From the NCBI GenBank assembly GCA_963830975.1, contig CAWHOI010000004.1:532924-596923 (forward strand): a stretch of DNA of 64,000 nucleotides. Reading direction: 5' to 3'. Of this stretch, positions 11,448 to 38,206 are shown piece by piece. The DNA comes from an uncultured Solirubrobacterales bacterium. Its GTDB lineage: Bacteria > Actinomycetota > Thermoleophilia > Solirubrobacterales > Solirubrobacteraceae. The translations under genes were made by a program, and so were the position numbers. The notes beneath the pieces were generated by a model that ran no database searches, had not been told where the DNA came from, and saw only the letters and a list, made by a program, of their open reading frames with translations. Numbering within the stretch: the stretch's first letter is position 1; the number at the start of each line of letters is the position of its first letter.

Positions 11448-12148
11448 AGTTGGGCCAGCGCCGCGCGATCGGCGATCACGGTTAGGCGCGTGCGCTCGAG
11501 CAGGCTAGCCGGCACGGCCGGATCCGGCGGCGCGAGCGCGCCGGCGAGCGCCGCCGCCTTGCCCGACCCGGTGGCGAGCAGGATCGCGCTGCGGGCGCCG
11601 CGCAGCACATCGATACCGAGCGACACGCGGTCCGGCGGCGGCTTGGGAGCGTTGTGAACGGCCACCACGGCCGCGCCGTGCGCGTCGAGCGCAGCGTTGT
11701 GGGGAAACAGCGACGCCGTGTGCCCGTCCTCGCCGATCCCCAGAAGCACGATGTCGAGCACGGGCAGAGAAGTCCCGTCGGCCGGCACCCGCTCGCGAAG
11801 CAGGGCGTCGTAGGCGGCAGCGGCTCGCTCCGCGCCAAGCTCGCCCTCGATGCGGTGGACGAGCGCGCCGGGCGCATCGGCGAGGAGTGTCTCGGCGACC
11901 ATCCGATAGTTCGACTCCGGGTCGTCGGGGCCGACGCAGCGCTCGTCGCCGAACCAAAGCTCGACGCCGCTCCAGCTGCCGCGGCGCAACTGCCCGTACG
12001 CGCCCGCGGGCGTCGTGCCGCCTGCGAGCGCAAGGTGCGCCGTGCCGCGGGCGGTGATCGTCGCGTCGAGAAGCTCCGCGACCAGCTTTGCGGCCCGGGC
12101 TGCGACGGCGGCGCCGTCGCTCACGCGGATCACGCTCGGCGCGCTCAC
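11444..12148 (-). CDS. pgl: 6-phosphogluconolactonase
   Basis: LALAGGTTP..WFGDERCV..GIGEDGHTASLFP. GTGA overlap with opcA. Confidence 0.85.
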   Translation of the reverse strand: MSAPSVIRVSDGAAVAARAAKLVAELLDATITARGTAHLALAGGTTPAGAYGQLRRGSWSGVELWFGDERCVGPDDPESNYRMVAETLLADAPGALVHRIEGELGAERAAAAYDALLRERVPADGTSLPVLDIVLLGIGEDGHTASLFPHNAALDAHGAAVVAVHNAPKPPPDRVSLGIDVLRGARSAILLATGSGKAAALAGALAPPDPAVPASLLERTRLTVIADRAALAQL

Positions 12149-13197: not shown

Positions 13198-13213
13198 CGG
13201 CTGGGCGCGAGCC

Positions 13214-14748
13214 TCAGATCGCCCGCCACTGGTGGCCTTCGAGCAGCAGCTCGTCCGCGGCCGCCGGTCCCTGCGTTCCGGCGGCGTACTGCGGCAGCCG
13301 CACCTTGCCCTCCGCCCAGGCCGAAACGATCGGATCGCAGATCCGCCACTGGGCCTCGACCTCGTCGTTGCGGGTGAACAGCGTCGCCTCACCCCGCATC
13401 GCGTCGAGAATCAGACGCTCGTAGGCCTCCGGCGACTGCGACAGGAAGGCGGTGCCGTAGAGGAATTCCATGTTGACCGGGCGGATCCGCATGCGCGTGC
13501 CCGGAATCTTCGCCCCGAGCGACAGCGACACGCCCTCGTTCGGCTGGATCGTCATCACCAGCTGGTTGGGCCGCACGCCCAGCGAGCCCTCCTGCTCGAA
13601 CGCGAGGTGGGGCACCGGCCGCAGGGTGACCGCGATCTCGGTGACCTTGCGGGCGAGCCGCTTGCCCGTCCGCAGGTAGAACGGCACGCCGGCCCAGCGC
13701 CAGTTGTCCACCTGCAGGCGCAGCGCGGCGTAGGTCTCCGTGTGCGAGTCCGCGGGCACGCCGTCCTCCTCGAGGTAGCCGGCGACCTGTTCGCCGCCGC
13801 TGACGCCGGCGGCGTACTGCGCTCGCACGCTCATCTGCTCGATCTCGTGCCCCTGCGGCGTGCGGATCGCGTGCAGCACCTTCACCTTCTCGTCGCGCAC
13901 GTCGTTGGCGGCGAAGCTGACCGGTGGCTCCATGCACAGCAGCGTGAGCAGCTGCATCATGTGATTCTCGACGAGGTCGCGCAGCGCGCCGGCGTGGTCG
14001 TAGTACCCGGCGCGGCTGCCGATGCCGATGTCCTCGGCGGCGGTGATCTGCACGTGCGCGATGTAGTTGCGATTCCACAACGGCTCGAACATGCCGTTCG
14101 CGAAACGGAACGCGAGCATGTTCTGCACCGTCTCCTTGCCGAGATAGTGGTCGATGCGAAACACCTGGCTCTCGTCGAATACGGAGAGCACCTTCGCGTT
14201 CAGCTCGCGAGCCTCGGCCAGTGAGGTCCCGAACGGCTTCTCGATCATCACGCGGACCTCGGCCGCCTGCTTCTCGGATCGCGCGAGCCCGGCGTTGCCG
14301 AGCGCCTCCACGATGACGGCGAAGAACTCGGGCGCCGTCGAGAGGTAGAACGCGCGCGACATCGGCTCGCCGGCAGCGTCGTCGAGCTCCTCGAGTGACC
14401 GTGCGAGGGCCTGGTAGGTCGCGGCGTCGTCGAACGCCCCGGTCACGTAGCGGAGCTCGTCGAGCAGGCCGGCCAGCACGCTCTCGTCGGGCGGCGTGCG
14501 CGAGAAGGCGCGGATCGACTCCGCCGCGATGTCGCGGTAGGCCTCGGCCGAAAGCTCACCGCGTGAGACGCCGATCAGGTTGAATCGGCCCGGCAGCGCT
14601 CCTTCGTGCGCGAGGTTGTAGATCGCCGGCAACAGCTTGCGCTTCGCCAGATCACCGGTGGCGCCGAAGATCACGAGATTGGTGGGCGCGACAGGGAGGC
14701 GTTCGAGTCCCGCCGCGAGCGGGTTCGGTGCGACGACGTCGGTCAGCG

Positions 14749-15689: not shown

Positions 15690-15690
<1 letters not shown>

Positions 15691-18410
15691 CAGAGCATCT
15701 CCTTGATCCGCGTGTGGAGCTCGCGCAGCGCGACAGCCGGTTCGCCGTTCAGCACGACGATCTCGGCCGGCAGGCCGTGGGAGCGCAGGGTCTGCAGGTC
15801 GCCGATCGCCTGCGCCGTCTCGAGCGTGCGAAACGTGTAGCCGGCTCCGGGTATCTCGACGTCGGGCCCGCTGTGGGCGATCAGCGAGAGGAAGCGCCCG
15901 ACCGGCGGACCGCCCTTGTGGAGCTGTCCGGTCGAGTGCAGGAAGCGCGGCCCGTAGCCGAACGTGGTGGCGAGGCGCGTGTGGGCGAGCAGGGTCGCGC
16001 GCAGCGCAGCGACCTCCTCGTCGAACTCGACCGAGGGCGCCACGTAGCCCATCAGGGCGATGTAGCCGTCTGCGGCGCCGCCGGTCAGCAGCGTGCGGAG
16101 CGCATCGTCGTCCGCCGGCTCGAGCTGCGGCAGCGCCCCGGCGCCGAGCACTCGCTTGGTGGCGTCCTTTGCCTCCTGGACGTTCGGCTGGTCGAACGGA
16201 TTGATCTCGAGCACCCAGCCTGCGACCGCCGTCGCGAACTCGGCGAGGAAGAACATCCGCCCCAGATCCTCGCTCCCGTTGACGCTCAGCGTGAGCGTCG
16301 GGTGCCCCGCCGCGCCCAGCGCCTCGACGCGGGAGTCGGTGTCCGCGTTAGCGCGCTCCTCGTCGCGCAGGTGCACGAAGACGCGGTCATCGCCGTAGCA
16401 CTCGGGTCCGAGCAGCGGCTCGTCGGCCACCGGCAGGATGCCCCGTCCCTGCTTGCCGGTGCTCTCCGCGACGAGCTGCTCGACCCAGAGTCCGAAGCTG
16501 GCGACCGGATCGCCGACGACGAACGTCAGCTTGTTGCGCCCGTGGCGGGCGAGCTCGCCGATAGCCAGTCCGAGCCACAGACCCGGGTTGGTCTGCGTGC
16601 TGTCGAAATGCGCGCACGCCTGCTCGGCGAGTTCGGCGCGCTCGAGCAGCGCATGCACCGGTGCGCCGATCAGCGCCGCCGGCACCAGGCCGAACAGCGA
16701 CAGCGCCGAGTAGCGCCCGCCGATGTTCGGGTCGTTCTCGAAGGCGGCGCGGAAGCCGTGCTCGCGCGCTAGATCGAGCAGCGAGCTGCCGGGGTCCGTG
16801 ATCGCCACGAAACGGTTACCGTCGGGCACCAGGGCGTGGAAGTGCTCGAACAGGGAGAGCGTCTCGATCGTCCCCCCCGACTTGGTCGAGACGACGAACA
16901 GGGTGCGCTCCAGCGAGATCGCCTCCTCCACATCGCGAATCGCCGCCGGATCCGTCGAATCGAGCACGTGCAGCGTCAGCGCCTCCTCGGTTGCGCCGAA
17001 CGTGCGCCACAGCACCTCGGGCGCGAGGCTCGAGCCGCCCATGCCGAGAAGCACCGCGTCCGTGAGGCCCTCCTCGGCACACCCGCGCGCGAACGCGACG
17101 AGCTCGTCGGCACGCTCGGCCATGGCGTCGGAGATCGTCAGCCAGCCCAGGCGGTCGCCGATCTCGGGCACCCCCGGACCGCCCCACAGCGACTCGTCCT
17201 TCGCCCACACGCGGCGGGCGACGCGCTGCTCGACCGCGGTCGAAACACGGCCGGCGATGGCGCGCGAGAGCTCGGGGGCGATCACCGCGGCGATCGCCGG
17301 CGGGCGCCCGGTGAGCACCATCTGGCGGGCGCTCTCGATGCCCGCGAGCAGCTTCTCCATCGGCGCGACGAACGCGGCGATCCCCTGCAGCAGCAGCGTC
17401 GTGGTCACGTCGTCCATGTCGATCCCGGCGGCGGCGAGCGCGTCGAGCGCGGGGGCCGGGTCGATCTGCGCGGTTCCCGGCACGATCTCGCCGCGCTCGG
17501 CGACGGCCAACAGGGTCTTCAGCGGCATCGTGTTGACGGTGTTCGGAGCGACCAGGCCGTCGACGTACATGGTGTCGGGGTAGGCCGGGTTCTTCACGCC
17601 GGTGGACGCCCACAGCGGGCGCTGCACGCGCGCGCCGGCGGCGCGCAGCGCGGCGAAACGCTCGCCGAGGAAGATCTGCTCGTAGCGGGCATAGGCGGCG
17701 CGCGCATTGGCCAGCGCGGCCGTGCCGGCGAGCTCGGAGCGTCCCAGCGCCGCGAGACGCTTGTCGACCTCGGTGTCCACGCGCGAGACGAAGAAGCTCG
17801 CGACCGAGTTGATGTCGACCGACAGGCCCGCGGCGAGGCGCCGCTCCAGCCCACGGATGTAGGCCTCGGCGATCTGCGCGTAGCGCTCGACGGAGAACAG
17901 CAGCGTCACGTTGACGTTGATGCCCTCGAAGATCGCCTGCTCGATCGCGGGAACCCCGGCCTCGGTGCCGGGGATCTTGATCATCAGGTTTGGGCGATCC
18001 ACGCGTGCCCAGTAGTCGCGCGCCTGCGCGATCGTGCCGTCGGTGTCGTCCGCGAGGGTCGGTGCGACCTCGAGCGAGATGAAGCCGTCGCCGTGCTCGT
18101 CGTAGACGCTGCGCAGCACGTCGGCGGCGTCCTGGACGTCGGCGACGGCGAGGCGCTCGTAGAGCGCCACGGCGTCGAGATCCTCGTGCGCCAGCTCCGC
18201 CAGCGCCTCCTCGTAGTCGTTGGAGCCGAGGATCGCCTGTTCGAAGATCGCCGGATTGGAGGTGACGCCGCGCAGCGAGCACTCGTCTCGCAGGCGGGCG
18301 AGCTCGCCGCTGACGATCAGGCCGCGGCGGATCTGGTCCAGCCACGGCGCGGTTCCGGCCGCAACCAACGCGGCAAGATTGGCGTTGGCGGTGTGGGGCG
18401 CGCTAGCCAT
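15690..18410 (-). CDS. bifunctional transaldolase / glucose-6-phosphate isomerase fusion
   Basis: 906 aa. The N-terminal ~370 aa carry TSNPAIF and NLMIKIPGT (Tal Schiff-base Lys context). The C-terminal part carries GMGGSSL and IGGRYSALS (PGI). An AGGAGG SD lies between it and the tkt stop. Confidence 0.9.
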
Positions 18411-18422
18411 GTGACCCTCCTT

Positions 18423-24493: not shown

Positions 24494-24623
24494 CCCGATC
24501 GACGTTTGAGCTGCAAGCTGTGCGGGGACCCCCGCCCCAGAGCGCTCGAGCGGCTCTCTCGGCAATCGCAGGCGACCGGCCCCCCGCGGCGCTCGCTCGT
24601 CTGCGCGACGGAAACGGAACCAC

Positions 24624-25727
<1,104 letters not shown>

Positions 25728-25860
25728 GCGCAGCCCAGAAAGACCGCCTGGCGGAGCCGACACGGGGCCCATGGACGGGCCCTGGACCGATCTGGACGGG
25801 GGGACCAACCGTCCACGCGCTCAACCTTTGCGCCGAGACAGCCGATTCTTGACCAGGCTC

Positions 25861-27006
25861 GTGATCGACATCGACCAGGCACTCTGCGCGCTCGTCGCGT
25901 GTGACGGATCAGACCTGCACCTCAAGGTGGGTTCGGTGCCGCTTGCCCGCGTCGATGGTGAGCTCGGTCCGCTGAGCCACGACGAGTGGCCCGTGCTCGA
26001 GGCCGCCGACACCGAGGCTGCGCTCCACCAGCTCGTGGGCAACAGCGTTCGCATGGCCGAGTTCGACGTGGAGAACGAGATCGACCTCTCGCACGACATC
26101 CCCGGGGTCGCGCGCTTCCGCATCAACGCCTTCCGTCAGCGCGGCGGCGTGTCGCTGGTCGCGCGCGCCATCCCGCACCGCATCCGCACGATCGAGGAGC
26201 TGGCGCTGCCCTCCGTGATCGCGAGCCTTGCCGACGAACAGCGCGGGATCGTGCTCGTGACCGGCACCACCGGCTCGGGCAAGTCGACGACACTGGCGGC
26301 GATGATCCACCACATCAACGTCACGCGCGCCTCGCACATCGTGACGATCGAGGATCCGATCGAGTTCGTGCACCGCGACCTGCGCTCGGTGATCAGCCAG
26401 CGCGAGGTCGGCGTCGACACCGCCTCGTTCAAGCGCGCGCTGCGTCGCGTGCTGCGCCAGGACCCGGATGTGATCCTGATCGGTGAGATGCGCGACGAGG
26501 AGACCGTCGCGACGGCGATCTCCGCCGCCGAGACGGGCCACCTCGTGCTCTCGACGATCCACACGATCGACGCTCCCGAGTCGATCAACCGGATGCTCGA
26601 CTTCTTCCCCCCGCACCAGCACGGCCAGGTCCGCTCGATGCTCGCCGGCACGCTGCGCGGCGTGATCTCGCAGCGGCTCGTTCCCGCCGCAGAGGGCGGG
26701 CGCGTCGCGGTCTGCGAGGTGCTGCGAATGACCGGGCGCGCGCGCGACATGATCCTCGACCCGGCCCAGACCGGGGCCCTGACTGCCGTCGTCGCAGAGG
26801 GCGGCTACTACGGCATGCAGACCTTCGACCAGGCGCTGTACGCGCACGTTGTCGCCGGGCGCGTGACCGTCGAGGACGCCGTCATGGTCGCCTCGAGCCC
26901 GCACGACTTCAAGCTGCTGCTCGATTCAGAGGGGCGGCGCGGAACCACGATGGCCGACGTCCCGACGGACGCCTCGCCGCCCTCGCCGCTCACCCTCGTC
27001 AGCTGA
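25861..27006 (+). CDS. pilT: type IV pilus retraction ATPase PilT-like
   Basis: GASDLHL-like N-terminus (DGSDLHLKVG), Walker A GTTGSGKST, IEDPIEF, ILIGEMRD and GHLVLSTIHT. The GTG at 25861 aligns best with PilT N-termini. The track start at 25771 and the TTG at 25849 remain possible. Confidence 0.8.
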   Translation: MIDIDQALCALVACDGSDLHLKVGSVPLARVDGELGPLSHDEWPVLEAADTEAALHQLVGNSVRMAEFDVENEIDLSHDIPGVARFRINAFRQRGGVSLVARAIPHRIRTIEELALPSVIASLADEQRGIVLVTGTTGSGKSTTLAAMIHHINVTRASHIVTIEDPIEFVHRDLRSVISQREVGVDTASFKRALRRVLRQDPDVILIGEMRDEETVATAISAAETGHLVLSTIHTIDAPESINRMLDFFPPHQHGQVRSMLAGTLRGVISQRLVPAAEGGRVAVCEVLRMTGRARDMILDPAQTGALTAVVAEGGYYGMQTFDQALYAHVVAGRVTVEDAVMVASSPHDFKLLLDSEGRRGTTMADVPTDASPPSPLTLVS

Positions 27007-27125
27007 CCGCGCCGCGTGCGGTCCAGGTCGGCGCAGCCGCCCGCCGGCTCGGGCGCCCGCAACGATTCACCTCGCGTGATTCCCGGATGAACTCCGGTGC
27101 TTCAGTTGGTAAAGTTTTGGGTGCG

Positions 27126-27479
27126 ATGGCATCCGATGACACCTGCCCCGTCTGTCACACGACCGAACTGGTCGGCGGGAAGTGGACGCTGCTGCTGGTG
27201 CGCGACCTCGCCGCCGGCCGCAGCCGCTTCTGCGAGCTCGAGCGGTCGCTGAGCGGGATCAGCCCGCGAACCCTGTCGCTGCGGCTGCGGGCGCTCGAGG
27301 AGGACGGCATCGTCGAGCGGCACACCTACCCCGAAGTGCCGCCGCGGGTCGAGTACTCGCTGACGCAGAAGGGCCTGGACCTGCTGCCGATCATCGACTG
27401 CATGCGCGAGTACGGCCGTCGCTGGCTGTGCGAAGAGGTTTCGCAGGCCCCGGAGCACCGCACCGCGATCGCCGCCTGA
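27126..27479 (+). CDS. HxlR-family winged-helix transcriptional regulator
   Basis: CPVCHTTELVGGKWTLLLVRDL..FCELERSLSGISPRTLSLRLRALEEDGIV. GC3 drops upstream of the ATG at 27126, so I prefer that start. Confidence 0.85.
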   Translation: MASDDTCPVCHTTELVGGKWTLLLVRDLAAGRSRFCELERSLSGISPRTLSLRLRALEEDGIVERHTYPEVPPRVEYSLTQKGLDLLPIIDCMREYGRRWLCEEVSQAPEHRTAIAA

Positions 27480-27546
27480 GCGCCGCGCGGATGCAACGAG
27501 GGCTGCGCCGTGCAGGACGAACGGCTGCGCGCGCGAATCGCCCCCC

Positions 27547-28950
27547 ATGCAGTCGCGCCAGCTCCACGCCTCGTTGCACGCGTTCGCCGCAGCGGCGGGC
27601 GCGATCCTCGCCGGTGAAGTCGCGGGAGGCGACGAGATCGGCTTCGAGGTCGTGGAGGCGGGCGCGCGCGGCTCGCGGCCCGGGCTCTACTGCTACGAGC
27701 CGCTGACCGGCGAGTTCGTCGAGCGCCACTGGGCGAAGCTGCTGGCGCTGCCGGAGATGCGCGACGCCCAGCTCGCGCTGGCGGCGCTCGACGGCCTCGA
27801 GGACTACCTCGACGCCTACGCGCAGGAGCACCGGGTCGGCGCCCCGATCGAGCAGGACGTGCTGCGCTGCTTCACGCGCCGCGTCTTCACCGGGGCAGGG
27901 GAGAGCTTCGAGCTGCTGGCGGAGCGCTTCGAACCGGCCTACCGCGAGCTGAGGCAGGGGACGACCGACGAGCCCGGCGAGCTCGCTGTCCTGGCGCTCC
28001 TGCGGGGTCTCGGCTGCGAGTCGCAGGAGATCACCCTCGCCGAGGGCATGTTGCTGGCGCCCCTGGCGCGCCTCGACGTGCTGCCGCCCGACCCCTGCTG
28101 GCGCCGCCAGGAGGCGCCCGACGCCGACTCGCGCGCGCCGCGCGCCGGCGCCGAAGCGCGCACCGTGGTCGCGGTCGTCGTGACCGACGGGCCGGGCGCG
28201 ATCGCCGAGGCGGCCGAGCGGCTGCGTGACCTGCAGACCGCGCTGCGGCTCTACGCACCCGGGATCTCGCTCGCACCGCTCGCCTGGATCCGTGCCCCGC
28301 ACGCCGGCTGGCGGCCGTTGCCGATCGCCGGCGCCGGCCGCAGCGACGGACGCGTTCTCGTCAGCGCCGAGCAGGAGGACGAGCTGCGTGCGTTCGCCAA
28401 TCTGATCGCCCGCCGCCGACCGACCGACGGGGAGCTTGCCTGGGCGCTCGAGCGCTTCGAGCTGGCCGGCGAGCGCGGCGACGCGCTCGACGGCCTGACC
28501 GACAACCTGCTCGCGCTGCGGGCGCTGCTCGAGCCCGAGGGACCGCGCAGCGGGCGCCTCGCAGGCCGGATCGCGGCGCTCTGCGCCGAGCCTGCCGAAC
28601 GTCCTGCGGCGACCGAGCGCGTCGCGCACGCGATCTCGCTCGAGCATTCGCTGATCGCCGGGGTCAGCGTCGGTGAGCACGCGCTCGCGCTGGCGGAAGA
28701 GATCGAGAACCATCTGCGGGCGCTGCTGCGAGACTCGATCTGCGGGCATCTGAGCGGCGACCTCGTCGCGCTCGCGGACTCGCTGGTCGTCGAAGACGAC
28801 GCGCCCACGGCGCGACCGGGTGAGCGTCGCCGCGAGGCGCAGTCCAGCGGACCGCACGAGCACGCCGAGCAGGAGGATTGGTTCGACTTCGCCGAGGCGG
28901 ACTACTGCGCCGCCGAGGGCCCGGTGTCGCTGGGCGACCGCGCGAGGTAG
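27547..28950 (+). CDS. hypothetical protein (467 aa, no domain recognised)
   Basis: Consistent G/C third-position bias and an ordinary amino-acid composition. The overlapping minus-strand ORF 27391..28863 is Arg-rich noise. There is no obvious SD. Confidence 0.6.
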   Translation: MQSRQLHASLHAFAAAAGAILAGEVAGGDEIGFEVVEAGARGSRPGLYCYEPLTGEFVERHWAKLLALPEMRDAQLALAALDGLEDYLDAYAQEHRVGAPIEQDVLRCFTRRVFTGAGESFELLAERFEPAYRELRQGTTDEPGELAVLALLRGLGCESQEITLAEGMLLAPLARLDVLPPDPCWRRQEAPDADSRAPRAGAEARTVVAVVVTDGPGAIAEAAERLRDLQTALRLYAPGISLAPLAWIRAPHAGWRPLPIAGAGRSDGRVLVSAEQEDELRAFANLIARRRPTDGELAWALERFELAGERGDALDGLTDNLLALRALLEPEGPRSGRLAGRIAALCAEPAERPAATERVAHAISLEHSLIAGVSVGEHALALAEEIENHLRALLRDSICGHLSGDLVALADSLVVEDDAPTARPGERRREAQSSGPHEHAEQEDWFDFAEADYCAAEGPVSLGDRAR

Positions 28951-29996
28951 CGCCCCACCTGCGCCAGTCCGGCGAGGTCCTCGATCTCACCCGCAAGCTC
29001 GGGGATCAGCACCGGCTCGAGCCCTCCGAACGCCTCGCGCAGCCTTTCGAGCGCCGCCGCGTCAGCCGCGGCCAGCGCTTCCAGCTCACGCCAGCGCTCG
29101 GCCACCAGGCCGGCCAGCCGCGCGCCGAGCAGCGCTTCCAGCTCGGCCGGCTCGGGCGGTGGACTCTCGACCGTGTGGATGCGGTTGATCACGAGCGCCT
29201 CGAGCGAGTGATCGGCGCGGCGCAGCTCGGCGGCGAACGCGATCGCCTCCTCGAGCGCCTCGCGCTTCGGCGAGCTGACCAGGACGAAGGCCGTGTCCGG
29301 ATCGCGCAGCAGCGCCTGCACGGCCGCGGCCCGCGCGGCGAGCGCGTCGACCATGCCGGCGATCGCCGAGAAGAACGCGGTGATCTCGTGCAGCACGCCG
29401 GCACCGGTCAGGCGTCCGAGGACGCCGAGCAGCGGCGCGCTTGCACGACCCGCGGCGCGCGTCGCGAAGCTGCCCTGCGCGAGCAGGATCCGCAGGGCCC
29501 GGCCGTCGAAGAAGCGCGTCAGCCGCGAGGGCGCGTCGAGGAAGTCGAGTGCGTTGCGCGACGGTGGCGTGTCGAGCACGATCGCATCGAACTCACCGCT
29601 CCGATTCAGCTCGTACAGCTTTGCGACGGCACTGAACTCCTGCGATCCGGCGACCGCCCCCGACAGCTCGCGGTAGATCCGGTTCGAGAGTGCGCGGTCG
29701 CGAGCGCGCTCGTTCGGCGCCAGGCTCGCGATCAACTCATCGAGCGTGCGCTTGGGGTCCAGGCGCATCGCCCACAGCTCGCCTGGCCCGGGAACACGCC
29801 GTGCCTCGCCGCTCAGCTCGTCGAAGCCGAGCGCCTGCGCCAGGCGCGGCGCGGGATCGATCGTGACCACGGCGACGCGCTCTCCGCGGGCCGCGCGGGA
29901 GCAGGCGATCGCCGCCGCGACCGTCGTCTTGCCGACGCCGCCCGCGCCGACGCAGATGCACAGGCGTCCGCCGAGCGGATCGGCTTGCGCGTTCAC
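28902..29996 (-). CDS. ArsA/Get3-like P-loop ATPase (second of a pair)
   Basis: VNAQADPLGGRLCICVGAGGVGKTTVAAA..IVLDTPPSRNALDFL. The GTG start overlaps the stop of the upstream paralog (GTGA). Confidence 0.8.
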   Translation of the reverse strand: MNAQADPLGGRLCICVGAGGVGKTTVAAAIACSRAARGERVAVVTIDPAPRLAQALGFDELSGEARRVPGPGELWAMRLDPKRTLDELIASLAPNERARDRALSNRIYRELSGAVAGSQEFSAVAKLYELNRSGEFDAIVLDTPPSRNALDFLDAPSRLTRFFDGRALRILLAQGSFATRAAGRASAPLLGVLGRLTGAGVLHEITAFFSAIAGMVDALAARAAAVQALLRDPDTAFVLVSSPKREALEEAIAFAAELRRADHSLEALVINRIHTVESPPPEPAELEALLGARLAGLVAERWRELEALAAADAAALERLREAFGGLEPVLIPELAGEIEDLAGLAQVGRYLARSPSDTGPSAAQ

Positions 29997-30946
29997 GCCG
30001 CCACCGCCAGGTGATCCGCGAGAAGCTCGAGCTCGGGCACGGCGATCTGCGCCGCGGCGATCAGCGGCAGCTCGAGCGGCGCATCGATGCGCGCAAGCTG
30101 ATCGCGCTGGGCGTGCGCCCGTGCCTCCGACGCAAGCGCGGCCGCGAGGGCGTGACGGGTCGCCGCGGAGAGCTGCGGCTGGGCCTGGGCCTCGCGCAGC
30201 GCGACGAGGTCGCTCGCCGAGAAGCGCTCGGTGGTCACGCCGTTGACGAGCTCGGCGTCGAGCACTCCCCCCAGCGCGGCGCGCAGCGCGAGCAGCTCGT
30301 CGACGGCGGCGCGCTCGGGCGTCGCCACGGCGACCATCGCGGTCAGGCTGCGGTCGCGAAGCATCGTCGCGATCCGGCGCCCCTGGCGGGCGATCGGTCC
30401 AACCGCAGCGGCGCTCGCGAACGTGCGCGGCGCCTCCAGCAGCGCGAGGCCATGTCCGGTCGCCGGCGCGTCCACGACGACGACGTCGTAGGGATCTGCG
30501 TGGCGCGTGCGGCGCCGCGGCTGCGCCAGCTCCCAGATCTTTCCGATCGTCAGCATCTCGCGAAGTCCCGGCGTCGCCGCCGCGACGATCCCGAACGTGG
30601 TGCTCGAGCCGAGCACGTCGGCGAACATCCGCAGCGGAAGCTGGTCGTGCAGGTACTCCTCGAGCGCCTGGCGCGGGTCGACGTCTAGCGTCCACAGCCC
30701 CGGCGCCAGCTCGTTCTCGCTGCCGGCCTCGCAGCGGCGCCCGAACAGTCGCGGGACATCGCCGCGCCCGCTCACTTCGACGACCATCGTCCGTCGGCCC
30801 TGGCGCGCCGCGAGCAACCCCAGGGCCGCCGCGAGCGTGGAGCGCCCGACCCCGCCCTTGCCGAGGAGGAACACCAGACGCCGATCCAGCAGCCCGCGGC
30901 CGGCATGCTCGGTTGTGTTCGCGGATCGCCGGGTCGTGGTCCACAA
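29993..30946 (-). CDS. ArsA/Get3-like P-loop ATPase (first of a pair)
   Basis: LVFLLGKGGVGRSTLAAAL..VVVDAPATGHGLALL. The TTG at 30946 is my best guess for the start; the track ORF is over-extended to 32092. Confidence 0.72.
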   Translation of the reverse strand: MWTTTRRSANTTEHAGRGLLDRRLVFLLGKGGVGRSTLAAALGLLAARQGRRTMVVEVSGRGDVPRLFGRRCEAGSENELAPGLWTLDVDPRQALEEYLHDQLPLRMFADVLGSSTTFGIVAAATPGLREMLTIGKIWELAQPRRRTRHADPYDVVVVDAPATGHGLALLEAPRTFASAAAVGPIARQGRRIATMLRDRSLTAMVAVATPERAAVDELLALRAALGGVLDAELVNGVTTERFSASDLVALREAQAQPQLSAATRHALAAALASEARAHAQRDQLARIDAPLELPLIAAAQIAVPELELLADHLAVAA

Positions 30947-31036
30947 CCTAGTCCACCGACGTGCCGCATGAAGGATTCCTCTCAGCGCTTGCGAATAACG
31001 CCGCGTGTGGGTCCGCCCTCGACGCTGGAGCATCCC

Positions 31037-31801
31037 GTGAGCCAGAAGGCCAAAGTGATCGCGTTCGCCAACCAGAAGGGCGGCGTCGCGAAGACGACGA
31101 CGACGTTGAATCTCGCCGCGGCCTTCGCCGAGGAGGGCCACCGCGTGCTCTGCGTGGACATGGACCCGCAGGGCAACCTGACGATGTCGCAGGGAATCGA
31201 CCCGGATTCGCTCGAGCAGTCGATGTACGACGTGCTCGTGCATCACATCTCGATCCGCGAGGTGATCCGCAAGCGCGAGATCGACGTCGCGTGCGCCTCG
31301 ATCGACCTCGCCGGGGCGGAGATCGCGATGGCGCCGATGATCGGCCGCGAGCGCGCGCTGCAGCGGGCATTCGACCCGATCCGCGAGGACTACGACTTCA
31401 TCTGCATCGACACACCGCCGAGCCTCGGCCTGCTGACGATCAACGCGCTGACCGCGGCCGACAAGGTGATCGTCCCCGTGCAGTGCGAGTATCTGTCGAT
31501 GCGCGGTCTCATCCAGCTGCAGAACACGCTCTCCATGATCCGCGAGAACCTCAACCCCAACGTCGACATCGAGGGAATCCTGCCGACGCTGGTGGACTCG
31601 CGCACGATCCACGCGAAGGAGGCGATCGAGATCCTCGAGGAGAACTTCGGGGACCGCGTCTTCGCGTCGCGCATCCGCAAGACCGTGCGCTTCGCCGAGG
31701 CGCCGGTGAAGGGGATGTCTGTGCTCAAGTACGACCCCAAGGGCGTCGCCGCGCAGTCCTACCGAGATCTCGCCCAGGAGGTGCTCCATGGGCGCCGGTA
31801 A
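31037..31801 (+). CDS. ParA/Soj-family (MinD superfamily) ATPase, no parB partner in the window
   Basis: [29 protein letters not shown] (deviant Walker A) ..[22 protein letters not shown] start at 31037. Confidence 0.9.
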
Positions 31802-33245
31802 GCGGGCCAGCATGCGCGAGGGGCCCCTCGCCGCGCTCTTCCGCAAGACCGAGCAGGACAGCCGCGCGGCGCACCCGGCGCCGGAGGAGAGCGCCGAAGC
31901 GCCGAACGCTCCCGGCGAGCCGATCGATGCCGCCCCCGAGCCGTCGCACGAGCACGATGCGCCGCCTCCGCGCCACCCGCGCGAGAGCGGCGTGCCGCAC
32001 CCCGCCCTGAGCGTCGAGGAGGCCGCGACGTCCGTTCCGACTCCCCAGGAGCGCCTGCGGGCCGCGTTCAGCTCCGAGCTGCCCGAGGACATCCTCGAGC
32101 GCGAGCCGGCGCCCCACCATCCGATCGACGTCTACGCCCGCGCCGACTACAGCGAGCCGCAGCCCGGCTCGTCGCTGGGACAGCCGCGCCTGCGGGTCGT
32201 CGGCGTCGGCGGCGGGGGCGTCAACGCCGTAAACCGGATGGTCGAGGCCGGCGTGGCCGGCGTCGAGTTCCTTGCCGTCAACACCGACCTGCAGTCCCTG
32301 CAGCAGTGCACCGCCGATGTCACCGTGCACATCGGCGCCCAGGTGACCCGTGGCCTCGGCTCGGGAGCGAACGCCGAGCTTGGCAGGCTCGCGGCGATGG
32401 AGGAGTACGACAAGATCAAGTCGCTGCTCAAGGGCTCGGACATGATCTTCATCACGGCGGGCGAGGGTGGCGGCACCGGCACCGGCGCGGCCCCCGTGAT
32501 CGCGCGGATCGCGCGCGAGGTCGGCGCCCTGACGGTCGGCATCGTGACCAAGCCATTCGGCTTCGAGGGAACAAAGCGCGCGCAGCAGGCGGACGCCGGC
32601 ATCGAGGCGCTCGGAGCCGAGGTCGACACGCTGATCGTGGTGCCCAACAACCGGCTGCTGTCCGTGCTCGACAAGCAGACCTCGATGGTCGAGGCCTTCC
32701 GCGTCGCCGACGACGTGCTCCGCCAAGGCGTGCAGGGCGTGTCGGACCTCGTCACGCTGCCCGGACTGATCAACCTCGATTTCGCCGACGTGCGGACGGT
32801 GATGTCGGGCGCCGGCACGGCGCTGCTCGGCATCGGCATGGGGCACGGCGAGCACCGCGCAATCGAGGCTGCGACAGCCGCCGTCGCGTCGCCGCTGCTC
32901 GAGACCTCGATGGACGGTGCGCGTTCGATCCTGCTCTCGATCACCGGCGGCAGCGACCTCTCGCTGTGGGAGGTCAACGAGGCGGCCAAGGCAGTGAGCG
33001 AGGCGGCCCACCCTGACGCCAACATCATCTTCGGAGCGATGGTCGACGAGAACCTCGCCGACCAGGTTTGGGTGACCGTTGTCGCCACCGGTTACGCCGA
33101 CCGCGCGATTCGCCGGCCGCGCCGCCTCGACGAGCCGATCGGCGAGCCCCGCATCAAGCGCACCGCCGAGCCGCGTCCGGTCGCCGGACGCGCTCCGATC
33201 TCGGCCGCCTCACTCGACGTGCCCGAGTTCGTTCCCCGCGGTTAG
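31788..33245 (+). CDS. ftsZ: cell division GTPase FtsZ with a ~125-aa N-terminal extension
   Basis: Core motifs [39 protein letters not shown] and [11 protein letters not shown], plus the C-terminal peptide [10 protein letters not shown]. An AGGAGG at 31776-31781 lies 6 nt before the ATG, which sits 14 nt inside the parA-like gene. The alternative ATG at 31812 keeps the extension. Confidence 0.93.
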
Positions 33246-33251
33246 GCGCGC

Positions 33252-33683
33252 ATGGGCCGTCGGACGGCTCGAAGGCTCCTCGCGTCGCTGTGCGCGACCG
33301 TCGCTCTCGTCACGGTGAGCGCCTGCGGGGGGCCGGCCGCTGACCTGTTCGCCGTTTTCCGCAGCGGCCGGGTCGCCGGGGCCGACGTGACGGTGATCCC
33401 GAGCGGCGACGGCACGGTGCGCTGCAACGGCCGTCGCCACGAGTTGCCCGATCCGCTGGTGATCACCGCCGAGAACCTCGCCGACGATCTGACCACGCCT
33501 GGGAGCAAGGGCGAGCACCTGCCCTCGGGCCCGCACCCCGTCTACACCTACGTGGTCTCGACGCCGTCGGGCACCTTCAGCTACAGCGACGAGTCCCCCC
33601 ACCAGGGCTCGACGCTCTACGCCCTGCAGTCCTGGGTGGCGACCGTCGTGCGCACCGTGTGCCACCTGAAGGCCGGCGCCTGA
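33252..33683 (+). CDS. putative lipoprotein
   Basis: MGRRTARRLLASLCATVALVTVSAC has a lipobox-like VSAC. The gene starts 6 nt after the ftsZ stop. Confidence 0.6.
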   Translation: MGRRTARRLLASLCATVALVTVSACGGPAADLFAVFRSGRVAGADVTVIPSGDGTVRCNGRRHELPDPLVITAENLADDLTTPGSKGEHLPSGPHPVYTYVVSTPSGTFSYSDESPHQGSTLYALQSWVATVVRTVCHLKAGA

Positions 33684-33704
33684 CCCGCGCGCGCAGGCGG
33701 GTCA
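33681..33704. terminator. hairpin spanning two convergent stop codons
   Basis: TGACCCGC-gcgcgcag-GCGGGTCA, an 8-bp stem. It includes the TGA of the lipoprotein gene and the TGA (complement) of the LON-domain gene. There is no U-tract. Confidence 0.35.
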
Positions 33705-34376
33705 GCCGAAGCGCACCTTGCCGTTCGACCGCGCCCGGGCCTGCGCCCGGTCGACGAATTCGAGGCGCTTGAGCGCTGCGCGCATCAGCCGCGCCAGCAG
33801 TCGCAGACGCGCGTTCTCCGAGCGCAGCTCGAGCAGACCCTGCTTGGCCTCCAGTCCGAAGTCGACCGTGGCAGCCATCTCGTAGGCGTCCATCGCGGCA
33901 AGCCGGTCGTCGTCCGGTTCGCTGTCGGTCGCCTCGCGCACGAGCGCCGCGTAGGCGTCGCGCGCCGACCCGACGGCGATCTCGTCCCGCTCCTCGTCGC
34001 GGTCGGTCAGGAACTCGACCGTGCCCGCGGGGTAGGCGAGGTCGTCCTGGCGCTCGATCAGGCGGAACGGTCGGGTGCCGCGGGTCAGGATGTTGATGCG
34101 ACCGTCGTCGAGGCGCTCCAGCACGCGCTCGATCGCGACCGCGCAGCCGACCGGCTTCAGCTCGTCATCGGCGAGCCAGACGATGCCCAGCTCACGCTCG
34201 CGCTCGAGGCACTCCTCGACCATCGTCCGGTAGCGAGCCTCGAATATGTGCAGCGGCACGTACTCGCTCGGCAGCGCGACGAGCGCGAGCGGAAAGAGGG
34301 GGAAATCGCGCTCGATCAGCTCGCTCATGCGCGTGGTCCGCGGGGCCGCGAACTTTGGCGGACTGTCATCGGCCAA
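33702..34376 (-). CDS. LON N-terminal substrate-binding domain protein
   Basis: FPLFPLALVALPSEYVPLHIFEARYRTMV..GCAVAI..DGRINILTRGTRPFRL. The start could instead be the ATG at 34328. Confidence 0.75.
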   Translation of the reverse strand: MADDSPPKFAAPRTTRMSELIERDFPLFPLALVALPSEYVPLHIFEARYRTMVEECLERERELGIVWLADDELKPVGCAVAIERVLERLDDGRINILTRGTRPFRLIERQDDLAYPAGTVEFLTDRDEERDEIAVGSARDAYAALVREATDSEPDDDRLAAMDAYEMAATVDFGLEAKQGLLELRSENARLRLLARLMRAALKRLEFVDRAQARARSNGKVRFG

Positions 34377-34483
34377 TTATGGAGCGCGCACGTCGCGGCA
34401 CCGCCGCTGGACGCCCAGACGCCCCGGCGCGCGGGCGGCGCGAGCGCGGCGCGAGTGGCTCGGCGCGACGCATCGGGCTGTCG

Positions 34484-35125
34484 TCAGGCGTCGTAGCGGA
34501 GCGCCTGCGGTGAGGAGCGCATCGCGATCACGCGGGCCGGCACGCCGCCGACGACGGAGTTCGCCGGCACGTCTCGCGTCACGACCGCGCCGGTCGCGAC
34601 CACGGCGTTGTCGCCGATCGTCACGCCCGGCAGGATGCTCGCACCGTGTCCCACCCACACGTTGTTGCCGACGCGGACCTCCCGCCGCTCGATGCCCTGC
34701 AGCCGGATCGGGCGCTCGACGTCGGCGATGGAATGGTCGAAGTCGATGATCATCGCGCGGTCGGCGATCATGCAGTCGCGTCCGATCGAGATGCGCTGGT
34801 AGCAGGTGACGGTGCACTCCTGGCCGATCACGCTCTTGGCGCCGAGGCTGAAGACGCCGTCGTGGATGCGCAGCTTCGTGCCGTTGCCGACCCACGACCA
34901 CCGCCCGAGCTCGATCACCGCCGGCCGGTCCACCTCGAGCGACGCGCCCGTGCAGATGAAGGCGACGCCGTCGAGCCGCAGACGGTCACGCAGGCGCAGC
35001 TTGTACCAGGCAAGGCGTGCGAATCGCCGCGCGTAGAGCGGGTTCGCCATCCCATGCGAGAGCACGAAGCGCACGAGCGTGAAGGCGCCGCCGCGCAGCG
35101 GGCGGATCGGTTCCGGCGGTGCCAT
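34484..35125 (-). CDS. hexapeptide-repeat acyltransferase (left-handed beta-helix)
   Basis: VGNNVWVGHGASILPGVTIGDNAVVATGAVVTRDVPANSVVGGVPARVI. Confidence 0.8.
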   Translation of the reverse strand: MAPPEPIRPLRGGAFTLVRFVLSHGMANPLYARRFARLAWYKLRLRDRLRLDGVAFICTGASLEVDRPAVIELGRWSWVGNGTKLRIHDGVFSLGAKSVIGQECTVTCYQRISIGRDCMIADRAMIIDFDHSIADVERPIRLQGIERREVRVGNNVWVGHGASILPGVTIGDNAVVATGAVVTRDVPANSVVGGVPARVIAMRSSPQALRYDA

Positions 35126-35175
35126 CGCGGCGCAATCGTAGAGCCCGCCCGCGGGCTGGCATGATCCCGACCCGG

Positions 35176-36123
35176 ATGGCGAAAACCGATCTTGCCCAGC
35201 GCCTGCTGACCGGCGATCGCAGAGCGCTCGCCCGCGCGATCACACTCGTCCAGGACGACGACCCGGCCGGACTCGCGCTGGTGCGCGAGGTCTACCCGCA
35301 CACCGGCGGCGCCGCGATAGTCGGATTCACCGGCCCGCCCGGAGCCGGCAAGTCGACGCTGATCGGCGCTTTGACGCGCCGCCGCCGCGCGCTCGGGCGC
35401 CAGATCGGAGTGCTCTCGATCGACCCCTCCTCGCCGTTCACCGGCGGCGCCGTGCTCGGCGATCGCATCCGCCTCGCGGAGCACTTCCTCGACCGCGGCG
35501 TGTTCATCCGCTCGATGGCGACACGCGGCGCGCTCGGCGGCCTGGCCGAAGCGGCGCTGCAGGCGACGCTGCTGATGGAGGCCGCCGGGCGGGAGGAGAT
35601 CTACCTCGAGACGGTCGGCGTTGGGCAGGCCGAGGTCGACATCGTCGACCACGCCGACAGCGTAGTGCTGGTTCTGGTCCCCGGATCCGGCGACTCGGTG
35701 CAGGCCCTCAAGGCGGGCGTGATGGAGATCCCGGACATCATCGTGGTCAACAAGGCCGACCACCCGCTCACGGACGTCCTGGTGCGCGAGCTTCGCGGAG
35801 CGCTCTCGCTCGCTCCGCCGAGCAGCTGGCAGGTCCCGATCCTGACAACCGAAGCGCTGGACGGCACCGGGGTCGAGCTGCTCGAGGCGGCGCTCGACGC
35901 GCACCGCGTCGAGCTCGAGCGGGCGGGCACGCTGCAGGAGCGACGGCGGCGCAACCTGCGCAACGAGGTGATCGAGATGGCGAGCTCGCGCATGCGTCGC
36001 GCACTCGAGCGGCGGCTGAGCGGCGATGAGGACTTCGAGCGCCTCCTCGACGATGTCGTTGCGCGCCGCCTGGACCCCGCCAGCGCGGCGGCCCGGATCA
36101 GCGAGGGCTCTTCAGGCGCCTGA
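35176..36123 (+). CDS. meaB: methylmalonyl-CoA mutase-associated G3E GTPase (MeaB/ArgK)
   Basis: RALARAITLVQDD, GPPGAGKST, DPSSPFTGGAVLGDR, ETVGVGQ, VVNKAD. I chose the ATG at 35176; 35161 and 35119 are also possible. Confidence 0.88.
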   Translation: MAKTDLAQRLLTGDRRALARAITLVQDDDPAGLALVREVYPHTGGAAIVGFTGPPGAGKSTLIGALTRRRRALGRQIGVLSIDPSSPFTGGAVLGDRIRLAEHFLDRGVFIRSMATRGALGGLAEAALQATLLMEAAGREEIYLETVGVGQAEVDIVDHADSVVLVLVPGSGDSVQALKAGVMEIPDIIVVNKADHPLTDVLVRELRGALSLAPPSSWQVPILTTEALDGTGVELLEAALDAHRVELERAGTLQERRRRNLRNEVIEMASSRMRRALERRLSGDEDFERLLDDVVARRLDPASAAARISEGSSGA

Positions 36124-36517
36124 CGAAGCGCAGGGCCGACCAGGTCTCGTCTATCGCGCAGACCTTGTTGTCGACCAGTCCGGTCGCAAGGAGGCTGCCG
36201 CGCACGATCTGATCGTCGAGCTCGCTCGGGACGCCCGAACTGCACTTCGGCCACGCGATCCACAGGCCGCCCCGCGGCTCGAGCGCTGCGATCAGGGCTC
36301 CCAGCCGACGCTCCAGCGGCGCACGCGAGTTCGCGAACTGGACGATCACGTCGAACGACCCGCCGCGCAGCCTGGTGTGCGGGGCAGGCACGTCCTCGAA
36401 GCACGCGAGGAAGCGCGGCGGAGCCGCCATGACCGCCACGCGCGTGGTCGCGCTGACACCGAGCTTGCGCAGCAGCGCAGCCGCCGCGGCCGGGTCCCCG
36501 GACGCTTCGGCGCTCAT
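36098..36517 (-). CDS. DUF3052-like protein
   Basis: 139 aa. GGLWIAWPK..GLVDNKVCAIDETWSALRF resembles the actinobacterial DUF3052 C-terminal pattern. It overlaps the meaB 3' end by 26 nt (convergent). Confidence 0.55.
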   Translation of the reverse strand: MSAEASGDPAAAAALLRKLGVSATTRVAVMAAPPRFLACFEDVPAPHTRLRGGSFDVIVQFANSRAPLERRLGALIAALEPRGGLWIAWPKCSSGVPSELDDQIVRGSLLATGLVDNKVCAIDETWSALRFVRRLKSPR

Positions 36518-36562
36518 CGACCGCCGCGCGGCGGTCGGAGCGGTCCTCGGTCGGTGCGGAGG

Positions 36563-36742
36563 CTACGCGGCGCTGTCGCGAACGGACGTCTCGACGACCG
36601 CGGTGAGGTCCTGCATCGCCCGTGCCAGCTCGCGCAGGTCGGAGCTCTCCGGGCTGTTCTCCTCGATCGCCCGGATCGCGCGCCGGATGCGCGCCAGCTC
36701 GGCGAGCGTGAGGTCACGCTGGGAAGGCGTGTCGGCGGGCAC
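36563..36742 (-). CDS. small helical hypothetical protein (59 aa)
   Basis: Only the last 59 codons of track ORF 36563..38593 show strong GC3 bias (VPADTPSQRDLTLAELARIRRAIRAIEE..). GTG start with a weak SD. Confidence 0.35.
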   Translation of the reverse strand: MPADTPSQRDLTLAELARIRRAIRAIEENSPESSDLRELARAMQDLTAVVETSVRDSAA

Positions 36743-36913
36743 GCCTCGATGGTAGCTCGGCCTCCGGGCGCTCGCCGCGCAGCTGGCCGGATATCCCGGA
36801 ACCACGCGAGCGCCGGCGGCGTCGGCCGGTTGACGCTGGGCGGACTCGATCGCTTCACGGGCTCGAAGAATAGGTCGCCCCGTGCTCGCGCTCCCCAAGA
36901 TCAGGACATGCCC

Positions 36914-36939
36914 GTTTCCCGCGTCGCCGCGAGGGGAAC
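36914..36939 (+). promoter_or_regulatory. candidate SigB/SigF-type promoter upstream of the DJ-1/PfpI gene
   Basis: GTTT (36914-36917), 16 nt, then GGGAAC (36934-36939), 41 nt before the ATG. It resembles the GTTT-N14-17-GGGTAT stress-sigma consensus with one -10 mismatch. Confidence 0.3.
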
Positions 36940-36979
36940 TCCACCAACGCGACACGTTCTCGAACGACGGAGGTGGAAG

Positions 36980-37573
36980 ATGGCATCGCAGCTCAACGGC
37001 AAGACGATCGCCTTCCTGGTTGCACAGGAGGGCGTGGAGGAGGTCGAGCTGACCGAGCCGCGCGAAGCGGTCGAGCAGGCCGGCGCGGTGACGCATCTGA
37101 TCGCGCCGGAGGCGGGCGAGGTTCAGGCCTTCAAGCACCTCGACAAGAGCCGGCGGTTCGCAGTGGACAGGACGCTCGATGAGGCGGAGGTCGACGACTA
37201 CGACGGGCTGGTCCTGCCAGGCGGCGTGGCCAACCCGGATCAGCTTCGCACCGACGGGCGGGCGATCGAATTCGTGCAGGACATGGTCTCCTCCGGCAAG
37301 CCGGTTGGGGTCATCTGTCACGGTCCGTGGACGCTGGTCGAGGCCGACCTCGTGCGCGGGCGCACGATCACCTCGTGGCCGTCGCTTCAGACGGACATCC
37401 GCAACGCCGGCGGCACGTGGGTCGATTCCGAGGTGGTCGTCGACGATGGCCTCGTCTCGAGCCGCAAGCCGGACGATCTCCCGGCGTTCTGCGCCAAGAT
37501 CGTCGAGGAGTTCGCGGAGGGCGTCCACCGCGCCGGCGCTGAGAAGGCGCGCGCGTCGACGTCCGGGCGCTGA
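36980..37573 (+). CDS. DJ-1/PfpI family type-1 glutamine amidotransferase-like protein
   Basis: GKTIAFLVAQEGVEEVEL..LVLPGGVANPD..PVGVICHGPW (nucleophile elbow Cys-His). A GGAGGTGG SD is present. Confidence 0.9.
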   Translation: MASQLNGKTIAFLVAQEGVEEVELTEPREAVEQAGAVTHLIAPEAGEVQAFKHLDKSRRFAVDRTLDEAEVDDYDGLVLPGGVANPDQLRTDGRAIEFVQDMVSSGKPVGVICHGPWTLVEADLVRGRTITSWPSLQTDIRNAGGTWVDSEVVVDDGLVSSRKPDDLPAFCAKIVEEFAEGVHRAGAEKARASTSGR

Positions 37574-37624
37574 GCGACGGACCGAGACGCCAGCCATCGC
37601 TACCCGGCGCCCGCCGAGCCGCCC

Positions 37625-37651
37625 GTTTCGCGCCGGCCGCGGCGCGGGTAG
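37625..37651 (+). promoter_or_regulatory. candidate SigB/SigF-type promoter upstream of the DUF892 gene
   Basis: GTTT (37625-37628), 17 nt, then GGGTAG (37646-37651), about 50 nt before the GTG start. Confidence 0.35.
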
Positions 37652-37699
37652 CTGGTGCGCGCATGGAGCCGAACAACACCGCAACCGAAAGGAGACGAG

Positions 37700-38206
37700 G
37701 TGCCGCTGAACACCCTCACAGACGTGTTCGCAGAGCAGATCGAGGATCTCTACAGCGCGGAGACGCAGCTGGTGGATGCGCTGCCCAAGGTGGCGTCGGC
37801 CGCGTCGGACGCGAAGCTGCGGGAGGCGATCGAGAATCACCTCGAGGAGACACGCGGCCACGCCGAGCGGCTCCGCAACATCCTCACCGACCTGGGCATC
37901 GACTCGCCCACGCAGAAGTGCGAGGGCATGGCCGGACTGCTCGCCGAGGGCGACGAGATCGCTCGCACCCCCGGGTCGGGTCCGGCGAAGGACGCCGCCC
38001 TGATCGCCGCCGCGCAGCGCGTCGAGCACTACGAGATCGCGGCATACGGCACGGCCCGCGCACTCGCCGGTGAGCTCGGCTACGAGGACGCGCGCGACAT
38101 GTTGAACGAGACGCTCGAGGAGGAGAGCCACGCGAACGAGCTGCTCACGCGGATCGCGACGGGCGGCCTGTTGCGTAGCGGCCTCAACGCGCAGGCCGGC
38201 AGCTAG
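37700..38206 (+). CDS. ferritin-like DUF892 (YciE/YciF family) stress protein
   Basis: LTDVFAEQIEDLYSAETQLVDALPKVA..HLEETRGHAERL..EHYEIAAYGT. AAAGGAGA SD before the GTG at 37700. Confidence 0.85.
   Translation: MPLNTLTDVFAEQIEDLYSAETQLVDALPKVASAASDAKLREAIENHLEETRGHAERLRNILTDLGIDSPTQKCEGMAGLLAEGDEIARTPGSGPAKDAALIAAAQRVEHYEIAAYGTARALAGELGYEDARDMLNETLEEESHANELLTRIATGGLLRSGLNAQAGS

Follow-up and report, generated by a model that had tools for sequence, protein, structure and literature searches.

The stretch of DNA analysed here (the window, 64,000 nucleotides) comes from contig CAWHOI010000004.1 of an uncultured Solirubrobacterales bacterium (assembly GCA_963830975.1, positions 532,924 to 596,923, forward strand) and has a base composition of 71.7% G+C. 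It contains a gene for the cell-division protein FtsZ which overlaps the end of a ParA-type ATPase gene (parA) and whose product carries a long N-terminal extension; the extension opens with a peptide, here called motif 1, which is a candidate partner of the ATPase. Comparisons between loci cover the best 80 of at least 581 species-level genomes found to carry the extension, from which 78 full-length FtsZ and 74 ParA orthologues were aligned. The features of the locus (coordinates in the window; aa, amino acids; nt, nucleotides) are:

31037..31801, + strand: ParA/Soj-type deviant Walker A ATPase gene (~254 aa; AAA_31 210 bits, CbiA 99 bits)
31776..31781, + strand: Shine-Dalgarno sequence AGGAGG of ftsZ, 6 nt upstream of the ATG; it falls within the codons of parA for ..AQEVL.. 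and is kept in relatives
31788..31801, + strand: 14-nt overlap, read from the sequence, of parA (..GRR stop, ending at 31801) and ftsZ (MGAG..)
31788..33245, + strand: ftsZ with N-terminal extension (485 aa; TIGR00065 407 bits; Pfam Tubulin and FtsZ_C)
31800..31853, + strand: motif 1, aa 5-22, candidate ParA-interacting or ATPase-activating peptide, from conservation in orthologues
31971..32009, + strand: motif 1.5, aa 62-74, moderately conserved (HPRESG[LV]PHPAL; mean majority-residue frequency 0.59)
32034..32099, + strand: motif 2, aa 83-104, second conserved linear motif (mean majority-residue frequency 0.74 in 78 orthologues)
32184..33122, + strand: FtsZ GTPase core and C-terminal domain, aa 133-445 (Pfam/TIGRFAM; 72-96% identity across loci)
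33210..33242, + strand: ordinary FtsZ C-terminal peptide (..VPEF.P, kept at the C-terminus in 78 orthologues)

The protein scored well above the TIGR00065 cut-off for FtsZ (407 versus 295 bits), matched Pfam Tubulin at aa 136-294 (150 bits) and FtsZ_C at aa 343-435 (112 bits), and carried the G-box and GGGTGTG in its core; its C-terminal peptide is presumably the usual anchor-binding tail. Residue 132 paired with position 17 of the TIGR00065 profile, thus ~115 residues are extra at the N-terminus, and the extension ahead of the GTPase core is about 115-130 residues long. A preliminary description of this DNA, made from the letters alone, had put the excess at ~125 residues and had noted coding-type G/C at third positions, no in-frame ATG from codon 9 to the core and a single in-frame GTG near codon 69. 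These claims were upheld: the excess was ~115 by the TIGR00065 alignment, the G+C fraction at third codon positions (GC3) was 0.92 in the extension and likewise 0.92 in the core, and a codon scan found ATG before the core at codons 1 and 9 only and GTG at codon 69 only. The N-terminal peptide and the second motif were also present in the sequence as described. In an AlphaFold2 (AF2) model of the window FtsZ (mean predicted local distance difference test score, pLDDT, 59.8), the extension was mostly disordered, with helices at aa 13-26 and 86-95. Because the start codon, the Shine-Dalgarno sequence, the gene overlap and the peptide are all kept in relatives, the N-terminal extension is genuine and translated from codon 1.

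The gene upstream probably starts at GTG 31037, which is preceded by GGAG, since homologues begin MxGKAKVIAF; the mechanically called open reading frame (ORF) opens at 30905. Its product showed the features of the ParA/Soj subgroup, i.e. a deviant Walker A motif KGGxxK[ST], VDMDPQGN and the DNA-binding Arg equivalent to R238 of Myxococcus xanthus ParA. The match to Pfam MipZ covered only part of the profile (positions 2-136 of 262; 50 bits) and was far below that to AAA_31, and the protein lacked a MinD-type C-terminal membrane helix, terminating in ..AQEVLHGRR. The nearest solved structures were those of a mycobacterial ParA-like protein (4PFS/5IHP/5IF9; 209 bits, 47% identity), followed by M. 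xanthus ParA (8RAY; 201 bits, 41.5%) and Thermus Soj (169 bits). A ParA-type gene lay directly upstream of ftsZ in 80 of 80 loci, so that the co-occurrence of extension and ATPase proposed for checking in the preliminary description was complete in this set, and ATPase identity across the 80 loci (84-97%) was above that of the FtsZ core (72-96%). Furthermore, the 14-nt overlap was present in 70 of the 74 loci in which both ends were readable; such a stop/start overlap indicates translational coupling. The gene order is that typical of parA followed by the gene for its activator.

Among the relatives, the ParA ORFs of P0127 (locus L081, contig k141_2094794) and P0121 open with ~80 residues of another, more Rv1708-like ParA paralogue, or alternatively carry an internal duplication, joined to the ParA that is linked to ftsZ. 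Both are probably chimeras of metagenome assembly, and they hint that the same communities have a second ParA paralogue whose N-terminal DNA stretch is identical.

A search with FtsZ residues 1-133 returned 543 proteins, all of them FtsZ and mostly from metagenome-assembled genomes (MAGs) of Solirubrobacteraceae, while a scan of one genome per species found the extension in at least 581 genomes, the best 80 of which were all Solirubrobacterales or Solirubrobacteraceae MAGs. Individual protein clusters of this clade have hundreds to thousands of members. Thus the survey of relatives that the preliminary description had suggested found the extension to be conserved. In many MAG assemblies (P0004, P0072, P0145, P0175, P0208 and others) the GC-rich extension was frameshifted (homologues of 31037..32186), and public databases hold the products as truncated "partial FtsZ", out-of-frame Arg-rich tails and artificial ParA::FtsZ fusions; for example, the G-box was misread out of frame as RRRRRRQRGQP. 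These truncated entries are assembly frameshifts and an annotation hazard for this clade.

Motif 1 was the most conserved segment of the whole protein: its majority-residue frequency in the 78 full-length orthologues was 0.99, versus 0.92 for the GTPase core, and the linkers of the extension reached only about 0.3-0.5. A pattern starting M-x(3-5) and closing [A/D]LFRKTE was shared by 117 of 120 homologues, and in 117 of 120 the motif stood at a constant distance of about 11 aa from Met1. Within aa 5-22 it holds five basic residues (K5, R6, R10, R19 and K20) and four hydrophobic ones (M9, L14, L17 and F18) with a central Arg. The codons at its invariant residues differed freely (Ser AGC/TCG, Arg CGN/AGR, Leu CTN/TTG); invariant amino acids together with free synonymous variation point to selection on the peptide rather than on DNA or RNA, and peptide-level selection of this strength indicates a stereospecific partner. 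Generic ATPase-activating peptides have been described as short, N-terminal and dependent on essential positive charges (PMC13170346). Motif 1 has these properties, being short, N-terminal, positively charged and encoded beside an ATPase, and a helix was predicted for its region (aa 13-26, pLDDT 51-63). In a covariation check against ParA residues, the peptide variant A16D/E occurred in only one of 80 species-level loci.

Motif 2 followed the pattern VPTPQERLR[HA]AFSSE[IL]PEN.. (clade consensus core ERLRHAFSSE) and was modelled as a helix at aa 86-95 with pLDDT ~84. The preliminary description had considered it related to the N-terminal peptide, which was not confirmed, as a hidden Markov model (HMM) of motif 1 gave a single match per FtsZ ORF; a second copy was likewise not found by this HMM in six-frame translations of the window and 81 loci. 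The conservation of motifs 2 and 1.5 suggests that there may be several docking sites along the FtsZ tail.

The structural counterpart on the ATPase side is known from M. xanthus, where the ParB motif L11-x-R13-x-L15-x-x-L18-I19 binds a pocket of ParA, as found by mutagenesis and nuclear magnetic resonance; the pocket is formed by V116, L150, L152, L155, L187 and L192, and R13 touches a region comprising Y81, E82, D110 and E117 (PMC12462528). Aligned to 8RAY, a sequence mapping only, the residues of the window ATPase are I, L, L, I, M and L at the hydrophobic positions and Y, D, D and A at the positions of the R13 site, which places it among proteins with the bipartite partner-peptide pocket. 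All 18 of the 18 pocket or nearby positions were invariant in the 74 orthologues, in which 39 of 254 positions vary overall, while mycobacterial 4PFS has diverged at several pocket positions (H, A, D, T). Since the pocket residues and the DNA-binding Arg are kept, the ATPase resembles a ParA that binds the nucleoid and can still take up a peptide which is helical, hydrophobic and Arg-bearing.

Three lines of evidence, i) the conservation of motif 1, ii) the linkage to parA and iii) the retained pocket and DNA-binding residues, lead us to favour, tentatively, the reading that FtsZ itself is a partner or cargo of nucleoid-bound ParA and contacts it via motif 1. By analogy, motif 1 could play the part that N-terminal ATPase-activating peptides have in ParB, PomX, MinE and McdB, a view that we hold with the same reserve. 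Under such a mechanism ATP-bound ParA dimers would sit on the nucleoid via the conserved DNA-binding Arg, and the FtsZ peptide would offer a basic segment (K5/R6/R10) followed by a helix (P13-E22) presenting L14, L17 and F18. The FtsZ tails, we infer, would bind the pocket that lies at the ParA dimer's edge and trigger ATP turnover, and FtsZ filaments with their many flexible tails would serve as a multivalent cargo. The Z-ring or its precursor would thereby be positioned on the nucleoid, or excluded from it, with no separate adaptor; the effect may be one of positioning or of inhibition, its direction being a matter of inference. The further proposal, that FtsZ is cargo and ATPase-activating partner at once in a two-protein, adaptor-free system for Z-ring positioning or nucleoid occlusion across the whole order, is possible and distinctly more doubtful; as part of it, FtsZ might hold the operon position and the role that ParB, PomX or McdB hold elsewhere. 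Our literature search found no paper describing a ParA-linked N-terminal FtsZ peptide and, among the results listed, none linking Thermoleophilia or Solirubrobacterales to FtsZ.

Several observations weigh against FtsZ as a direct ParA partner, and most of them concern the likeness to ParB. The preliminary description had called the peptide a close resemblance to ParB/Spo0J N-termini. The Thermus Spo0J N-terminus that it gave was correct (1VZ0), the pattern MS[KR]KPSGLG[KR]GL[ED]ALLPK[TSG] occurs in 103 of 120 Deinococcota ParBs, and an ungapped alignment of the FtsZ peptide with ParB shares the basic pair, one Ser and LxAL[LF]xKT. The canonical arrangement hydrophobic-x-[RK]-x-hydrophobic-x-x-hydrophobic-hydrophobic (GLG[RK]GLxAL[LI]) was nevertheless absent, because the FtsZ peptide has MREGP in place of the core GLG[RK]G: L-x-x-L-F fits the motif, but neither the Arg nor the first hydrophobic residue stands in register, GLGxG is missing and an inserted Pro13 moves the spacing by one residue. 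A ParB HMM built from 72 Spo0J N-terminal 22-mers, from Deinococcota only, scored the FtsZ peptide at about -0.9 bits; scores at least as high were reached by 1248 of 14028 background windows (9%) and by 1580 of 5000 shuffles of the peptide itself (32%), and a relaxed ParB pattern occurred in 26 of 412 (6%) unrelated N-termini. The HMM comparison that had been proposed thus found no similarity above chance, and the claim of close resemblance was not supported, the score being no better than background. The sequence resemblance to ParB is a lead, not evidence.

Further points on the same side come from the distribution of the peptide and from the ATPase. The 32-aa peptide, searched as a profile against 1.84 billion representatives, gave 1077 matches, and among the best 150 of these 1077 no other carrier was found, all being FtsZ N-terminal fragments, frameshifted ORFs or likely chimeras; a phmmer search of the PDB with the 30-aa peptide (E<=10) returned zero matches. 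The kept pocket could simply serve the organism's own ParB, which tblastn, with Thermus Spo0J as query, detected neither in the window nor in the loci. An AF2 model of a natural frameshift fusion, ParA::FtsZ-N (P0145), reached a mean pLDDT of 60 with the peptide below 50; being of a monomer and from a shallow alignment, it speaks neither for nor against a contact. Lastly, the 100% co-occurrence of extension and parA is confined to one clade and therefore counts as a single evolutionary event, not as a repeated independent association.

Motif 1 might instead be a membrane-targeting amphipathic helix through which FtsZ binds the membrane directly, with ParA acting on FtsZ otherwise (e.g., by MipZ-like inhibition via the GTPase core) or on another cargo, an account that we find quite improbable. 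An N-terminal amphipathic helix of its own is known for OdinFtsZ1 (first 13 aa), Mycoplasma FtsZ and chloroplast FtsZ1 (PMC12583498). In the AF2 helix at aa 13-26, L14, L17 and F18 would share one face, with R19 and K20 at its flanks, and the hydrophobic moment of the helix (0.53) is like that of known membrane-targeting sequences; this value overlaps such sequences and the Spo0J peptide alike, however, and does not discriminate between them. Moreover, the helix holds just three large hydrophobic residues and lies ~110 residues away from the core, and S8, R10, E11, G12, P13 and T21 are invariant across an order whose linker is ~32% conserved. Membrane helices normally keep amphipathicity, not sequence. 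Because polar positions are invariant and the normal C-terminal anchor-binding peptide is kept, a membrane helix is disfavoured.

Unlikely as well, and deserving more weight, is the explanation that motifs 1 and 2 bind some other conserved partner or FtsZ itself, the linkage to parA then arising only because division and segregation genes are regulated together. The partner might be SepF or another divisome protein, or a protease or adaptor; a site for a kinase and an autoinhibitory contact within FtsZ are further candidates. The extreme conservation of motif 1 indicates a specific partner, not its identity. Motif 2, with its pLDDT of 84, looks as if packed on something, the extension holds three separate conserved motifs, and the locus has further conserved neighbours (the BagA/BagB-like ATPases, orf467 and a LON-N domain protein, described below); in Anabaena an N-terminal peptide of FtsZ acts on polymerisation itself (PMC6175996). 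On the other hand, none of the candidates is linked as tightly as parA (adjacent in 80/80, overlapping in 70/74), motif 1 was not confidently packed on the FtsZ core in AF2 (pLDDT 51-63), and basic residues at the extreme N-terminus match the ATPase-activating peptides. That the extension is an artefact of annotation or translation, with the real start near the core, is effectively excluded: its only support is the many truncated or frameshifted database entries, of which the truncated ones are assembly frameshifts, while the stretch from codon 9 to the core has no usable in-frame start except GTG at codon 69, and relatives keep the ATG together with its Shine-Dalgarno sequence and the peptide, GC3 is 0.92 and purifying selection acts at the protein level.

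The wider locus has the syntenic order PilT-like, orf467, BagB-like (-), BagA-like (-), parA, ftsZ, in which the following features stand upstream of parA:

28902..30910, - strand: Get3/ArsA-type ATPase pair, divergent from parA-ftsZ (Pfam ArsA_ATPase; NCBIfam BagB 267 bits, below cut-off)
29993..~30910, - strand: BagA-like ATPase, ~126 bp from the parA start
28902..~29987, - strand: BagB-like ATPase (NCBIfam BagB 267 bits, below cut-off)

The BagA/BagB-like pair was syntenic in nearly all loci with enough flank; the two are conserved neighbours that are not known to be linked to division in function. Between the PilT-like ATPase gene (25771..27006) and the BagB-like gene lies orf467 (27547..28950, + strand), whose 467-aa product matches nothing in Pfam or NCBIfam and is conserved, at 35-73% identity, in most of the related loci. 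The surroundings of ftsZ (24510..38000) include genes for a sigma-70 factor, the PilT-like ATPase, an HxlR-like regulator, a hexapeptide transferase and MeaB, and a LON-N domain-only protein is encoded nearby (33702..34376, - strand). No mur or ftsQ gene of a dcw cluster was found among the 29 window ORFs scanned with Pfam. Elsewhere in the window, a 910-aa ORF (15690..18422, - strand) next to OpcA (12145..13410, - strand) combines transaldolase and phosphoglucose isomerase domains and appears to be a fused pentose-phosphate enzyme.

Lineage-specific conserved peptides before the core are known from OdinFtsZ1 and Mycoplasma FtsZ (PMC12583498) and from Anabaena FtsZ (PMC6175996). These peptides are not linked to parA; motif 1 is unrelated to them in sequence, lies much farther from the core and has invariant polar positions.

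Among actinobacterial proteins, PldP of Corynebacterium glutamicum and Rv1708/MSMEG_3743 are relatives of the window ATPase; they are orphan ParA-like proteins, linked to division and localised to nucleoid or septum. They are at most putative orthologues, the score to 4PFS (209 bits) being only slightly above that to M. xanthus ParA (201 bits); 4PFS is probably MSMEG_3743, an identity for which the literature search gave no confirmation. The gene downstream here is ftsZ and not scpA, and the pocket differs from that of 4PFS; the PldP and Rv1708 genes stand beside scpA/scpB and not beside ftsZ. Rv1708/MSMEG_3743 affects septation, and Rv1708 binds ParB and ScpA (PMC10482377). PldP is found at the nucleoid and at septa and is not stimulated by ParB, and its activator or partner is explicitly given as still unknown (bioRxiv 10.1101/2025.07.02.662783).

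The likeness to ParABS is one of arrangement. In Thermus Spo0J (residues 1-20) and M. xanthus ParB (residues 11-19) the peptide likewise stands at the extreme N-terminus before a disordered linker (PMC12462528); it is also basic and predicted to form a short helix, with four hydrophobic residues and a central Arg, and its gene directly follows parA, while the ATPase here keeps the residues of the ParB-peptide pocket and the DNA-binding Arg. In contrast to ParABS, the carrier is FtsZ and not a CTPase that binds parS, there is no ParB domain or parS, GLG[RK]GLxAL[LI] is absent and the ParB HMM score was not significant. The PomXYZ system of M. xanthus is comparable in that a nucleoid-bound ParA/MinD ATPase positions the Z-ring and the cargo is a multivalent polymeric assembly (PMC7993993, PMC13170346). 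There, however, dedicated PomX and PomY proteins act as activators and cargo and then recruit FtsZ, whereas here the peptide is on FtsZ itself and there is no adaptor gene; the two are likened by general properties alone.

MipZ-ParB of Caulobacter and MinCDE also employ ParA/MinD-family ATPases to control the site of FtsZ assembly. MipZ and MinC, however, target the core of FtsZ or its C-terminal tail and owe their own position to ParB or MinE, and FtsZ in those systems has no dedicated N-terminal motif. Actinomycetota are not known to have Min or Noc, and the Solirubrobacterales, very abundant in soils, are barely studied; if FtsZ does contact ParA through motif 1, the locus would offer a concrete, testable model of division-site selection for Actinomycetota, and it would mean that a cytoskeletal polymer can take on a grafted N-terminal activator peptide. 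All known ParA/MinD systems for placing the division ring use intermediaries, namely MinC/MinE, ParB-MipZ or PomX/PomY, and an FtsZ carrying its own ParA peptide would be the simplest system of this kind.

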